Positions 17,198 through 36,884 of a stretch of DNA of 38,436 bases are shown here, in pieces; positions within the stretch are counted from its first letter, which is position 1; every line of letters begins with the position of its first letter. Made by a program: the position numbers and the translations under genes. A model generated the notes under the pieces. The model saw only the letters and a list, made by a program, of their open reading frames with translations. It had not been told where the DNA came from and searched no databases. Origin of the DNA: a virus (Duplodnaviria; Heunggongvirae; Uroviricota; Caudoviricetes); IMG/VR virus record IMGVR_UViG_2939147180_000005, positions 1 through 38,436 of that record; one strand, 5' to 3'.

Positions 17198-17272
<75 letters not shown>

Positions 17273-17275
17273 ATA

Positions 17276-17351
<76 letters not shown>

Positions 17352-19179: not shown

Positions 19180-19440
19180 TCAATCGTCTTCAAAAGCAGA
19201 AAAGCCAGCTTTTAATCCAATTTCTTTTAATGTCCGTAATGATGTGACAAATTCATCTTCACGCAACATAAATCCGTCCGTCACATGCCCATTCAAGAGA
19301 TATATTAACATAGCCCCACTAGGCTGTTGCAAAGCCCGTGAGCAATGAATGCAGTAACAACTAATAATTTCCCCATTTTCAACGCGCACAGCATAGAGAC
19401 CATCTTTATTAAAAATTTTGCGCAACTTCTTGAAATCCAT
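19180..19440 (-). CDS. Hypothetical protein
   Basis: 86-aa ORF with ATG start; no motif recognised. Confidence 0.4.
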   Translation of the reverse strand: MDFKKLRKIFNKDGLYAVRVENGEIISCYCIHCSRALQQPSGAMLIYLLNGHVTDGFMLREDEFVTSLRTLKEIGLKAGFSAFEDD

Positions 19441-19595
19441 AAACAGAAATTTTCCAGATTAATAGCGTTCCCCTGAAGGGTCCATCCCTCTTCTCCCTGC
19501 GCGCTAACTAAGCAAACACGATTCTATTTACAACAGTCAGTCCCTCAAGACTTACGGCTAAAAGAGTACACAAAAAGCTAATTTATCCACCACAA

Positions 19596-19620
19596 CAAAA
19601 AACCCGCCGAAGCGGGTAAG
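19596..19620 (-). terminator. Intrinsic terminator downstream of hok
   Basis: Minus strand reads ACCCGC-TTCG-GCGGGT followed by TTTTTTGT. Confidence 0.5.
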
Positions 19621-19685
19621 TACGGGTGCGTTGAGGATGCCTGACACATCAGAGGTGGCGGGGGATTTCTCCCCCGCCGGGTCTC

Positions 19686-19841
19686 TTACTCCTCAGGTTC
19701 GTAAGCTGTGAAGACAGCGACCTCCGTCTGGCCGGTTCGGATTCGTACCTCGCAGAGGTCTTTCCTCGTTACCAGTGCCGTCACAACGACGGTTAAACAG
19801 ATGACGATCAGGGCGATTAACATCGCCTTTTGCTGCTTCAT
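19686..19841 (-). CDS. hokD: Hok/Gef-family type I toxin (HokD/RelF-like)
   Basis: Translation MKQQKAMLIALIVICLTVVVTALVTRKDLCEVRIRTGQTEVAVFTAYEPEE; missed by the 60-aa ORF cut-off; a stable GC hairpin (19655-19680) follows the stop. Confidence 0.85.
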   Translation of the reverse strand: MKQQKAMLIALIVICLTVVVTALVTRKDLCEVRIRTGQTEVAVFTAYEPEE

Positions 19842-19899
19842 AGCCTGCTTCTCCTTGACCTTTTGGTCGGTAAGAGGCTAATCTACGTATGCAAAGCAT
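19693..19899 (-). CDS. mok-like overlapping leader ORF (modulation of killing)
   Basis: 68-aa ORF in another frame overlapping all of hok, as in hok/mok/sok loci. Confidence 0.45.
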   Translation of the reverse strand: MLCIRRLASYRPKGQGEAGYEAAKGDVNRPDRHLFNRRCDGTGNEERPLRGTNPNRPDGGRCLHSLRT

Positions 19900-19960
19900 A
19901 GATGTGGCCTCAGATTAATGTTAAGCGTCTTGCCGGACGCGTAATGTTAACTGGGGCTTT
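19850..19960 (+). ncRNA. Probable Sok-like antisense RNA region (boundaries not determined)
   Basis: By analogy with hok/sok, the antitoxin RNA is antisense to the mok start region; TTGACC at 19856 is a possible -35; 5' and 3' ends not resolved. Confidence 0.25.
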
Positions 19961-20053
19961 TCTCTATCTGCCTTTGGTGTTCATGCCCGAGGCAGACAGC
20001 CTCAAGCACCCGCAGCTATTCTACTTAACTCCCGTTACCTCGCCAATATGAAA

Positions 20054-20158
20054 TCAATCAGAAAGGTGATCCATAAGAGCAATAGCAAGACCATAGATTG
20101 CCATTACAGCCGCTATAGCCAACGCACATTTCGTAACCAGCACGTTAACCTCCTGCAT
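20054..20158 (-). CDS. Small hydrophobic peptide (29-34 aa); candidate small membrane protein or type I toxin
   Basis: ATG-CAGGAGG-TTAAC-GTG: AGGAGG sits 5 nt before an in-frame GTG; product (M)LVTKCALAIAAVMAIYGLAIALMDHLSD is one TM helix. Confidence 0.3.
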   Translation of the reverse strand: MQEVNVLVTKCALAIAAVMAIYGLAIALMDHLSD

Positions 20159-20444: not shown

Positions 20445-23006
20445 TTAATATTTGAATCTTTTGTTTGGTATGATTTTCAGTTTTTTTGCTAAAGCCGTTA
20501 ACTTTCTTAAGCGCCACTTAAGGGTGGACTCAGTTAATCCTTCCCCTGCAATACCTTTAAAAATTTCATAACAAGGCTGACCAGCGTGTATTGCTTTCCA
20601 GAAATCCTCATAGCCGTCATCAAGTATTTGAGCTGTAAGTGCCTCATTAAGCTCTTCAATATTAGATACTGCTAAGTGCCCATCGACTAAAACACCAGCA
20701 TTATTTAAATCAGATTTTGCTTTAAGCGCTTCTTTTCCAGTAGGCTCTTTACCGTTCAGTATCAAGCTGGTAACTTCAATCATTTTAGCGTGAGATGTTA
20801 CAGGGAAGAAAAGCCCTTTATTTCCTGCCCTTAAGCCCGAAATTTTCTTAAGATTTCCTAACTCAGCTGTTGCATCATTATGCGACACATCTGAGGCAAT
20901 AATGCGACCTTCCCCATCAATTTCTATAATTTTTAGGGCAAGTAACCATGACTTTAAAATCGTAGAGTATAATCCCCATGTTTTCTCTGATGCCTCAATA
21001 AAAGGATAAGACTCAGAAAAATACGTGGGTATATCGCTCTCGAAAACTTTTTCTCCAGAAAGAATTTTTTTAAGTAAAGTCTCGACGAGTTGATTGTCTA
21101 AAATTTTTCGGCGTAGATAACCAGCAAGGGTTCCTTGAGAATATATATCCCTAACATTGGTTGGAATTATCCATTCACCACTTTTAACTGCATCAAGCAA
21201 GTCTAAATTCCGCAATTCCTTAACGAGATTAAATGCGTAACCTTCCCTTACATTTAGGTTTTCCGTTATTTTTGTAATTGTCAGCTTTCTCATTGTTATC
21301 AGTTTATGAAACTGGGATATAACAGAGCTTGGATACATTCTATAAATAACCAGCAGTCTAAATTCAGGAAGCTTTTGGTAGACAAGATATTCTTTGAAAA
21401 CATCGTTATAAGTATCATAGGTAGAACCACTCAAGCGTACCAATCTGTAAGCTGTTAACTTATCGAGGACTTTTACAAGCATTGGGTCTTCGTCAAATTG
21501 GTATTGAAGCTCATTGAAATCTGCTGGTAGCTTAGCTGCAATCTTAACTAGATAATCTTTTTCAATCTCATCCAAACCTTCAAGCTCTTCTTCAAAAAGG
21601 TCGTTCAGTTTTAAGCCCGCACTGATTAAATCCCTCTGAGAGTCACCTTTTCGAGTGAGTTTTAAAACATGAGCTATCGTTCTCTTTAAAAGCCAAGGAA
21701 AACCCTGCGCAAATTCAATAATATAGGGTAGTATTTCTTTACTGAGAATATTAGAGTTATTTTCATTTATTTTTTCTAAAAGAAGTATTGATTCTTTGTT
21801 TTCAAAATCCGGAAGAGTAAAGCTTTTCGATAGCTGATTAATTCTATTAAGAGAAACTTTACTGTTGTCATAGGTTGTTAGCTGATCATTTTTACGCGCA
21901 AACACTATGTATACACCACCACGAAGCTTTGTTATTGAGTTCGCAATGTATTCATAGCAATCGAAAATGTCAGGATTCGAGAATGTAGATTCAAATTGGT
22001 CAACAAAGAAAACTGCCTTTTGGCCATTTAGTGAAAGTTGCAAGTCTTTCAGTTGTTCATCAAGTTCTATAAAATTAGTCGCAATAATGCTGCTTTGGGT
22101 AAACCTCTGAACAAGATAAAAAACATCATATATTGTTTTTACATCCCTTGAGTCATGTAATTCAGTAATAACCCCATCCATTGAGAGCTTGTTTTCTAAA
22201 AAGGATACAAGAGAGCTTTTTCCTACTCCAGAGCGACTTTTTATCTGAAGAACATGTGGTAGCTCATTATGTTTGATGTGAGAAAGAAGTTCACCTATGA
22301 ATTCAGTCCTGCCAACGAACACAGTTGGCCCTGCAGGTAGCCTATAGTCAGCCCATTCAGTCCCAACAGTTAATCCTCGAACTATTTCACGCTTTACTTG
22401 AGGCATTTCGTCAACTATTTTTTTCTTGCTAGGCATAATGAAATCCAAACCAGCAAGTTCTGAAATCCCTATTTTTAAATTTTCCAAAAATCTTTCATCA
22501 TCAATTTGGCTGCCACTTTTATTGAATACCACAAAATTTGATGGCGTTCCTGAATTTACCTCTTTTAAAATAAATAACTTATACAACCCCGTATCAGTCT
22601 TGAGAATGTTTGGGGCCACAAGGTCATAACCTTTAATTTCCTTATGTAGAGATGTTTCAGTCGGCAAATGCAAAGTCGCAGTTATTTGGTTATAAAGTTC
22701 CTTTCCTACCTTTGTCGTTAACCCCATATTTTCGACAGTTCGAAAATAATCTTCCGCCTCCGGTGTTAATGGTGATAATGACAGAAATAATCCATGCACC
22801 TTTTTTTCCAGAAGACCTAGCGGCAAAAGCTTTCCAACGAACGCAGCAACTGTTTGTCCACTCATGCTTTTGCTGTGTGCTTTAGCTTCGCCAATAATCT
22901 TTTGGCCAGTTGCTCTAGAGAATCCTTCAATGTCGTACTCTAAACTAGATTCTTTTTTCCTTAACTCAATGTCGTATCCAGAGCCTTCCAAGTATTCTTT
23001 TAACAA
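20445..23006 (-). CDS. Mrr-like PD-(D/E)xK nuclease fused to a STAND-type P-loop NTPase with a C-terminal helical domain; candidate antiphage defence protein
   Basis: 853-aa ORF, AT-rich. N-terminus …YDIEG…IIGEAKAHSK (D…ExK); P-loop HVLQIKSRSGVGKSSL; Walker B AVFFVDQFE; GxP-like AQGFPWLL; ~400-aa C-terminal region without recognised motifs. Start is TTG at 23006; no upstream ATG. Confidence 0.6.
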   Translation of the reverse strand: MLKEYLEGSGYDIELRKKESSLEYDIEGFSRATGQKIIGEAKAHSKSMSGQTVAAFVGKLLPLGLLEKKVHGLFLSLSPLTPEAEDYFRTVENMGLTTKVGKELYNQITATLHLPTETSLHKEIKGYDLVAPNILKTDTGLYKLFILKEVNSGTPSNFVVFNKSGSQIDDERFLENLKIGISELAGLDFIMPSKKKIVDEMPQVKREIVRGLTVGTEWADYRLPAGPTVFVGRTEFIGELLSHIKHNELPHVLQIKSRSGVGKSSLVSFLENKLSMDGVITELHDSRDVKTIYDVFYLVQRFTQSSIIATNFIELDEQLKDLQLSLNGQKAVFFVDQFESTFSNPDIFDCYEYIANSITKLRGGVYIVFARKNDQLTTYDNSKVSLNRINQLSKSFTLPDFENKESILLLEKINENNSNILSKEILPYIIEFAQGFPWLLKRTIAHVLKLTRKGDSQRDLISAGLKLNDLFEEELEGLDEIEKDYLVKIAAKLPADFNELQYQFDEDPMLVKVLDKLTAYRLVRLSGSTYDTYNDVFKEYLVYQKLPEFRLLVIYRMYPSSVISQFHKLITMRKLTITKITENLNVREGYAFNLVKELRNLDLLDAVKSGEWIIPTNVRDIYSQGTLAGYLRRKILDNQLVETLLKKILSGEKVFESDIPTYFSESYPFIEASEKTWGLYSTILKSWLLALKIIEIDGEGRIIASDVSHNDATAELGNLKKISGLRAGNKGLFFPVTSHAKMIEVTSLILNGKEPTGKEALKAKSDLNNAGVLVDGHLAVSNIEELNEALTAQILDDGYEDFWKAIHAGQPCYEIFKGIAGEGLTESTLKWRLRKLTALAKKLKIIPNKRFKY

Positions 23007-36496: not shown

Positions 36497-36703
36497 ATGA
36501 CAAAAACTTTGAGATATGACGATGTTAAACCATGTCCGTTTTGTGGTTGTCCATCAGTAACGGTGAAAGACATTTCAGGATATTACCGGGCAAAATGCAA
36601 CGGATGCGAATCCCGAACTGGCTATGGTGGAAGTGAAAAAGAAGCGCTCGAAAGATGGAATAAACGAACCACTGAAAATATTAATGGAGGCGTTCATGTA
36701 TAA
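36497..36703 (+). CDS. ralR: RalR / Lar restriction-alleviation protein
   Basis: MTKTLRYDDVKPCPFCGCPSVTVKDISGYYRAKCNGCESRTGYGGSEKEALERWNKRTT… zinc ribbon; matches remembered Lar. Confidence 0.85.
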   Translation: MTKTLRYDDVKPCPFCGCPSVTVKDISGYYRAKCNGCESRTGYGGSEKEALERWNKRTTENINGGVHV

Positions 36704-36884
36704 AATTACCGCTACAATTGAAAAGGAAGGTGGCACTCCTACTAACTGGACAAGATATTCAAAATCTAAACTAACGAAATCAGAATGCGAAAAAATGCTC
36801 TCAGGTAAAAAAGAAGCAGGCGTTTCCAGAGAGCAGAAAGTAAAACTGATAAATTTTAATTGCGAGAAACTTCAGTCCTCGTGA
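36696..36884 (+). CDS. ydaC: YdaC-like small protein
   Basis: Start MYKITATIEKEGGTPTNWTRYSKSKL… with GGAGG RBS; overlaps ralR stop by 8 nt. Confidence 0.7.
   Translation: MYKITATIEKEGGTPTNWTRYSKSKLTKSECEKMLSGKKEAGVSREQKVKLINFNCEKLQSS

Follow-up and report, generated by a model that had tools for sequence, protein, structure and literature searches.

The segment 19596-20046 of the window, by which we mean the whole 38,436-nt stretch of DNA analysed here (virus record IMGVR_UViG_2939147180_000005), is very probably a hokD-type hok/mok/sok cassette, a complete type I toxin-antitoxin system carried by an E. coli lambdoid prophage of the Rac type, which is integrated at ttcA and has the cassette in its nin-like region. 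The cassette is complete in that it holds the toxin gene, the coupling ORF, the antisense RNA and all known folding elements of the hok mRNA (Table 1). As a locus it is an ordinary textbook hok/mok/sok cassette and already known; the toxin and the mok ORF are on record because RefSeq and GenBank annotate hokD, or mok and hok, at this place. The placement of the Sok gene and the RNA elements goes beyond these records, which omit them. A preliminary description had proposed a hok/mok type I locus under fold-back control at 19596-19990. Both the locus and its type hold, as a Pfam toxin, a mok-like ORF, a match to Rfam RF01794 and the fold-back elements were all found, while the right limit was set too short and left out the promoter and the 5'-most 21 nt of the transcript.

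Table 1. Features of the hok/mok/sok cassette in window coordinates; nt, position in the hok mRNA.
Feature	Position	Strand	Sequence or size	Basis and remarks
hok/mok promoter	20018-20046	-	TTGGCG-17 nt-TAGAAT	Promoter scan; aligns with the hokC TATAAT box
Full-length hok mRNA	19596-20011	-	about 416 nt	5' end from Rfam start and promoter spacing; 3' end from terminator
tac box	20000-20011	-	GGGUGCUUGAGG, nt 1-12	Pairs with fbi (full-length) and ucb (truncated); conserved, covarying
Nascent metastable hairpin	19983-20009	-	tac nt 3-13 with nt 19-29	Folds of short transcripts
ucb / anti-SD box	19951-19957	-	GCCCCAG, nt 55-61	Pairs with mok SD region (full-length) and tac (truncated)
mok Shine-Dalgarno	19908-19911	-	GAGG, nt 101-104	8 nt 5' of mok ATG; sequestered in the full-length fold
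Sok-target hairpin	19881-19903	-	AUCUAUG-CUUUGCAUA-CGUAGAU, nt 109-131	Contains mok AUG; loop complementary to Sok 5' end
mok ORF	19693-19899	-	68 codons	+1 frame relative to hok; identity to annotated mok
dcb box	19874-19878	-	GCCUC, nt 134-138	Pairs with mok SD in truncated mRNA; within Sok promoter spacer
hok Shine-Dalgarno	19851-19856	-	AAGGAG	Invariant in the alignment
hok (HokD-type) toxin gene	19686-19841	-	51 codons and stop	Pfam, identity, annotation
G+C-rich 3' hairpin	19657-19678	-	9 bp, GGCGGGGGA/UCCCCCGCC	Downstream of hok stop
fbi box	19624-19636	-	CCUCAAcGCACCC, nt 376-388	12 bp and one bulge to tac
Intrinsic terminator	19602-19617	-	ACCCGC-UUCG-GCGGGU, then UUUUUU	Promoter/terminator scan
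Sok promoter	19855-19884	+	-35 TTGACC (19855-19860), 18-nt spacer, -10 TAATCT (19879-19884)	Alignment with sokC, sokB and R1
Sok antisense RNA	19891-19967	+	77 nt	Both ends aligned to curated K-12 sokC

Toxin gene and mok

The hok gene encodes the peptide MKQQKAMLIALIVICLTVVVTALVTRKDLCEVRIRTGQTEVAVFTAYEPEE and is missing from the ORF track because its 51 aa fall below the 60-aa cut-off. Pfam HOK_GEF (PF01848) matches the product over the entire profile (positions 1-42 of 42) at 82.9 bits, far above the cut-off of 22 (E=1.2e-23), and the PHROG family 'MokW-like host killing' scores 113 bits with it. The N-terminal hydrophobic helix and the conserved residues of the family are both present, and the columns invariant between the toxin and HokB, HokC, HokD and R1 Hok are C15, T25-R26, L29, E31, G37 and E40-V41-A42. 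Aligned with the hok family, the toxin is identical to K-12 HokD (RelF) at 50 of 51 residues (98%), the exception being V19, which is I19 in K-12; together with the Pfam match this bears out the Hok/Gef-family toxin proposed in the preliminary description. The name HokD is taken solely from this identity, because NCBIfam returned no HokD equivalog match and its Hok subfamily model stayed under the cut-off (48 versus 73 bits). Toxicity of the peptide would follow from that of K-12 HokD, one residue different, which served as the known-toxic control in bioRxiv 10.1101/2025.08.07.668861.

The Tyr47 codon, whose middle base is A19702, stands in the context CUUACGAA, as it does in K-12 hokD, where TadA reportedly edits this codon in the same context at a low level (PMC12214031). 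Local folding gave no convincing hairpin that would offer the Tyr47 codon to TadA. Judged by the sequence motif and the published level of editing in K-12, the codon may be edited in this copy as well.

The 68-aa ORF that overlaps hok in another frame had been described as mok-like, and its product is 100% identical to the Mok protein annotated in GenBank MN652886 ('Escherichia phage Rac'). The ORF passes through the hok start, overlaps nearly all of hok and ends 7 nt short of the end of the hok stop codon; its AUG occupies nt 113-115 of the hok mRNA. Mok matched no Pfam or NCBIfam family. Among relatives, the mok start and Shine-Dalgarno sequence are conserved, whereas the reading frame of mok with respect to hok is not: the window and loci L017 and L018 have the +1 frame; in L008, L011, L013, L014, L016 and K-12 hokC, mok is in frame and extends Hok at the N terminus to 69-70 aa; and mok is a 19-codon ORF that stops near the hok start in L021-L023. 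Since the frame varies even among close relatives, the sequence of the Mok peptide is probably not the conserved feature. This would fit the accepted view that ribosome transit through the leader is what matters, and not the Mok peptide.

The Sok antisense gene

A plus-strand Sok RNA had been expected near 19850-19960, and its gene can now be placed by aligning the antisense strand with K-12 sokC, K-12 sokB and one R1-type plasmid locus. The -35 box is identical to that of sokC and the spacer core GGTAAGAGGC is conserved. The putative start, G19891, aligns with the curated sokC start, and the 3' tail GGGGCTTTTCTCTAT, whose last base is 19967, is identical to that of sokC. The predicted fold (-31.8 kcal/mol) leaves the 5' tail single-stranded, followed by a long terminator hairpin and the U-rich tail GGGGCUUUUCUCUAU. 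The predicted RNA exceeds sokC by 18 nt, owing to an insertion that extends its hairpin and is also present in the other hokD-type prophage loci.

With only three of its six -10 positions agreeing with the consensus, the Sok promoter went unreported in the consensus promoter scan; the placement of the promoter therefore rests on homology to sokC, sokB and R1. Sok is complementary to nt 45-121 of the hok mRNA, a segment that takes in the mok Shine-Dalgarno sequence and the mok AUG, and its 5' end GCAAAG lies opposite the loop of the hairpin that carries the mok AUG (nt 109-131). At the level of sequence, the plus strand thus presents what is expected of a cis-encoded antisense gene with its own candidate promoter and predicted terminator hairpin, opposite the region where mok translation would initiate.

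Transcript and predicted conformational switch of the hok mRNA

The Rfam search covered the whole window at gathering thresholds. RF01794 matched the leader at 19836-20011 on the minus strand, the strand of hok, with its full model (1-157), scoring 105.2 bits where the gathering threshold is 59. The -10 box of the hok promoter ends 7 nt ahead of the first base of this model. The G+C-rich hairpin and the terminator that had been noticed 3' of the hok stop are both present, and a run of T comes after the latter. The elements in Table 1, including the metastable hairpin, were defined as in plasmid R1 (PMC9841398). The dcb box lies in the spacer of the Sok promoter in R1 too (PMC9841398), and the R1 terminal stem-loop, the counterpart of the G+C-rich 3' hairpin, protects the processed mRNA (PMC9841398).

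The full-length mRNA has a minimum free energy of -176.1 kcal/mol (z = -7.5 versus shuffles). Its unconstrained minimum-free-energy structure pairs tac nt 1-12 with fbi nt 376-388 and ucb with the mok Shine-Dalgarno region, and the ensemble probabilities of these two pairings are 1.0 and 0.99, respectively. The tac/fbi duplex is worth -21.1 kcal/mol, a value that shuffling the 3' UTR reached in only 4 of 2000 cases. In folds of truncated mRNAs of 365-372 nt, tac moves to ucb with a probability of up to 0.96, and the pairing of the mok Shine-Dalgarno sequence with dcb reaches about 0.85 when the mRNA is cut to 372 nt. At 360 nt and at 370 nt the ensembles are mixed, and the predicted switch is thus sensitive to the point of 3' truncation. 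Folds of the first 28-46 nt contain the hairpin that holds tac, with energies from -16.8 to -19.0 kcal/mol.

Comparative and covariation support

A scan of one genome per species yielded 77 loci encoding Hok relatives. A tac box with a complementary fbi box recurs across the hokC/hokD clade, an Enterobacter clade, hokB and R1-type loci; the tac-box pattern was relaxed to take in the R1-type loci, and the hokD-type locus L009 escaped it despite having the leader. The two boxes change in a matched way, with GGGUGC/GCACCC versus GGCGC/GCGCC, U7-A versus C7-G in hokB, and G-C versus G-U variants.

The full-length minimum-free-energy structure of the window was projected onto a whole-mRNA alignment of 29 sequences and compared with slid controls. 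Standard pairs formed in 79.6% of the cells versus 40-44% in the controls, a percentage that is somewhat inflated since the structure comes from a member of the alignment, which does not inflate the count of pairs with changes on both sides (43 versus 19-27). The covariation score was 0.188 versus about 0.07. Over the 29 sequences, the tac/fbi helix is 89% paired, with U-A replaced by C-G in seven, and the ucb/SD helix is 100% paired, with one compensatory pair (G-C to A-U in nine). Compensatory changes occur in five of the nine pairs of the G+C-rich 3' hairpin. The alignment supports the proposed structure.

Genomic setting and relation to known loci

A stretch of 511 bp spanning the locus is 100% identical in several E. 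coli chromosomes, where PGAP/RefSeq names the gene hokD, and 4725 of 5426 complete E. coli genomes contain a DNA match to the cassette query. In the annotated context of one of the identical chromosomes, the match lies in a Rac-type lambdoid prophage beside ttcA. The genes there run in the order intR, xisR, ralR, recT, recE, racC, kilR, repressor and replication genes, a 'restriction endonuclease', hokD, a rem-like gene, DUF1367, DUF1364, a Q-like DUF1133 gene, two tRNAs, lysis genes, and terminase and head genes. IS elements are found near the locus in this annotated prophage. MN652886 is 98.9% identical at the DNA level over the locus, and both mok and hok are annotated in it. It shares with the window and the RefSeq hokD copies the order hok, rem-like gene, DUF1367, DUF1364 and Q-like DUF1133 gene, and differs from the window upstream of the promoter, where it carries small hypothetical genes in place of a nuclease-STAND gene. 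Sok is unannotated in the RefSeq hokD chromosomes and in MN652886, and a literature search for 'sokD', 'mokD' and MN652886 returned no dedicated description.

The gene directly upstream of the cassette in the window (20445-23006) encodes an uncharacterised 853-aa Mrr-nuclease/STAND-NTPase protein; no PADLOC model matched this protein or Hok. A 34-aa hydrophobic ORF at 20054-20158, just upstream of the cassette, was considered as an additional component and rejected, as it belongs to no family and is found beside only one other of the 77 hok loci. Among prophage relatives, the resemblance to the window extends from about 20019-20031 to about 19589-19598, and these shared limits mark the cassette as a discrete module, about 440 bp long, within variable flanks.

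K-12 hokD (relF) of the Qin prophage shares with the window copy the hok Shine-Dalgarno sequence, the coding region, the G+C-rich 3' hairpin, the fbi box, the terminator and the rem-like gene downstream. Its homology begins only at the hok Shine-Dalgarno sequence (window position 19855), relE lies directly upstream, and it lacks tac, ucb, mok, Sok and an RF01794 match, whereas the window copy has the leader and Sok. The K-12-like copies L010 and L015 likewise resemble the window from 19855 only, have relE upstream, carry no tac box and give no RF01794 match. Since the K-12 homology is confined to 19855 onward, the window holds the complete form of what is left in K-12 as the relBE-hokD remnant. 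This agrees with the report that K-12 loci other than hokB lack components of the canonical system (PMC12214031).

With K-12 hokC/mokC/sokC (gef), the window shares 84% toxin identity, the tac box, ucb, the Sok -35 box and the Sok 3' tail, and hokC scores 118 bits with RF01794. The two differ in that sokC is 59 nt long compared with 77 nt for the window Sok, mokC is in frame with hokC whereas the window mok is in the +1 frame, and the fbi box has been removed by IS186 in K-12. Plasmid R1 has the same elements in the same order (tac, metastable hairpin, ucb, Sok target, dcb, hok Shine-Dalgarno sequence, 3' hairpin, fbi and terminator) and the same predicted closed and open folds, although its toxin is only 41% identical, its tac/fbi helix carries compensatory changes (GGCGC/GCGCC against GGGUGC/GCACCC) and it is plasmid-borne, not prophage-borne as in the window. 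A hok/sok cassette in a lambdoid prophage is also represented by hokW-sokW of Sakai prophage 5 (Sp5), an Stx2 phage; likeness to hokW is known here via phage records annotated MokW/HokW-like, which are 88-94% identical to the window cassette at the DNA level.

Discussion

The regulatory mechanism can be stated by homology with high confidence, as what the sequence predicts under the R1 paradigm. The promoter, with its imperfect -35 box, would give rise to a stable mRNA of about 416 nt. In the nascent mRNA, the metastable hairpin would hold tac; in the complete mRNA, the 5' tac would pair with the 3' fbi and ucb would hide the mok Shine-Dalgarno sequence, so that neither ribosomes nor Sok would be active on it. 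Slow 3' trimming toward the G+C-rich hairpin would remove fbi and tac would switch to ucb, which would free the mok Shine-Dalgarno sequence and form the Sok-target hairpin. The unstable Sok, if present, would then pair over the mok Shine-Dalgarno sequence and AUG and block the translation of mok and thereby also the coupled translation of hok, and the duplex would be marked for RNase III. Once Sok synthesis ends, through prophage loss, transcription shut-off or induction, mok and hok would be translated and the Hok peptide would depolarise the inner membrane. The analysis itself shows the sequence elements, the pairings predicted for them, their conservation and covariation, and the homology to curated loci. 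From the work on R1, hokW and K-12 we infer the transcription of both RNAs, the 3' processing, the cleavage by RNase III, the translational coupling and the toxicity.

The role of such a cassette in a prophage can be read in several ways. Loci of the hok type are enriched in prophages (bioRxiv 10.1101/2025.08.07.668861), and hokW-sokW of Sp5 is experimentally established as a functional type I toxin-antitoxin system, in which sokW RNA is lost after mitomycin C, the production of HokW depends on RecA, and phage release falls two-fold without the locus (PMC8621323). It is possible, though we hold it only tentatively, that the main role of the window cassette is likewise to aid the phage, with Sok lost on induction and early membrane damage by Hok helping lysis and release, and not to maintain the prophage. 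Beyond the Sp5 precedent (PMC8621323), this would be in keeping with the position of the cassette, which resembles that of hokW-sokW, with replication genes on one side and Q on the other in a lambdoid prophage that has a full set of head genes, and with MokW-annotated phage records that are 93-94% identical. Against such a role stand the IS elements nearby, and post-segregational killing or abortive infection are equally possible functions; R1 hok/sok, as it is cited in PMC8621323, lowers T4 plating.

We regard it as unlikely, though less so than the readings that follow, that the cassette is structurally complete and yet physiologically silent prophage cargo, which would cause no killing on its loss or on transcription arrest. 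The K-12 hok loci are mostly inactivated (PMC12214031), the -10 box of Sok is a weak match, and, as summarised in bioRxiv 10.1101/2025.08.07.668861, chromosomal hokA, hokB and hokC gave neither post-segregational killing nor activation by rifampicin; with tested chromosomal loci that do not kill in this way, activity of the present locus cannot be assumed. However, unlike the K-12 loci, the window copy carries no IS insertion, truncation or frameshift, its regulatory elements are all intact and seem to be structurally constrained, the module of about 440 bp is kept across many prophages, and the related prophage locus hokW-sokW is active. More speculatively, the cassette might serve not maintenance but, together with the adjacent gene for the 853-aa protein, a small prophage-borne defence or lysis island, in which Hok would be freed when infection or induction shuts off Sok and the 18-nt extension, specific to hokD-type prophage loci, would tune the stability of Sok, an idea to which we give little credence.

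A literal reading of the Rfam 'sok' match would place the antitoxin RNA on the minus strand at 19836-20011, where the match is indeed reported. We consider this scarcely credible. In K-12, RF01794 likewise matches hokC and hokB in the hok sense, and the curated sokC and sokB are encoded within those matches but on the other strand; the model spans from the 5' end of the hok mRNA, where its first base falls at the tac box, to the hok AUG as its last. RF01794 matches the hok-sense strand because it describes the hok leader and not Sok; Sok is the reverse complement of the central part of this leader model. That the small ORFs arose by chance and no gene is present is practically out of the question, for although both are short and mok has no family match, the Pfam E-value of 1.2e-23, the matches in 4725 of 5426 E. 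coli genomes and the covariation of the RNA structure all contradict it.

Beyond the quality of annotation, the finding matters little. Within that scope, it demonstrates that a genuine, potentially lethal gene is lost to a 60-aa ORF cut-off, and that standard annotation, with hokD alone or with hok and mok, leaves out the antitoxin RNA and the regulatory elements of such a locus. The strand of an Rfam 'sok' match must not be taken as the strand of Sok. A complete natural hokD with its own promoter, mok and Sok is of use to those who study hokD.

Table. Features in and around the hok cassette and elsewhere in the window
Feature	Position	Strand	Remarks
tRNA-Thr(TGT) and tRNA-Gly(TCC) genes	17198-17351	-	follow the Q-like antiterminator gene (DUF1133)
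86-aa ORF	19180-19440	-	downstream of hok; PHROG 340 match (unknown function)
hok Tyr47 codon UAC	19701-19703	-	within CUUACGAA, TadA-type motif
34-aa hydrophobic ORF, MQEVNVLVTKCALAIAAVMAIYGLAIALMDHLSD	20054-20158	-	just upstream of the hok promoter
853-aa ORF	20445-23006	-	directly upstream of the hok promoter
RalA sRNA	36702-36880	-	full-length Rfam match, 218 bits

Variation and annotation of the hok cassette

The frame of mok relative to hok varies among related cassettes with 80-93% DNA identity to that of the window (hok loci L008, L011, L013, L014, L016, L017, L018 and L021-L023 of our scan of one genome per species) and the window itself (19693-19899), the states seen being +1, an in-frame arrangement that yields an N-terminally extended Hok, and a 19-codon ORF. 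The Rfam family RF01794, named "sok antitoxin", proved to be in the sense of the hok mRNA when tested on three hok loci (L003, L004 and L005) and extends over the entire hok leader, with the transcript start at one end and the hok AUG at the other, so that its matches give the strand opposite to that of the real Sok gene.

In the mRNA of K-12 hokD, 6% editing has been reported, by which a Tyr is recoded to the conserved Cys (PMC12214031). The sequence around the Tyr47 codon of the window hok is identical to that of the hokD mRNA, and the A that would be edited is unpaired in the predicted full-length mRNA ensemble; folding revealed no clear local hairpin at this codon.

Genomic neighbourhood and possible defence functions

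The tRNA genes of the window lie downstream of a Q-type antiterminator gene, which is the usual place for tRNA cargo in lambdoid prophages. The counterpart of the 86-aa ORF is annotated as "rem, prophage antirepressor" in Escherichia phage Rac (MN652886), and in the K-12 prophage Qin rem follows hokD in the same position as this ORF follows hok. The 34-aa ORF, in which AGGAGG precedes an internal GTG, had no family in Pfam, PHROG or NCBIfam, and among the 77 hok loci examined it occurs beside only one other (L014, E. ruysiae, 79%).

The same prophage carries a second type I toxin-antitoxin system, represented by RalA, the antitoxin sRNA against the RalR DNase toxin; ralR sits in the Rac early region of NZ_CP019280, where the context is identical to that of the window. 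The product of the 853-aa ORF, named "restriction endonuclease" by PGAP, matches the Pfam nSTAND1 NTPase domain (residues 228-403, 33 bits) and, weakly at its N-terminus, an Mrr-type restriction nuclease; PHROG and PADLOC gave no match. An architecture that joins a nuclease to a STAND NTPase is antiviral-STAND-like, and this ORF is therefore possibly a prophage defence gene that is as yet uncatalogued.
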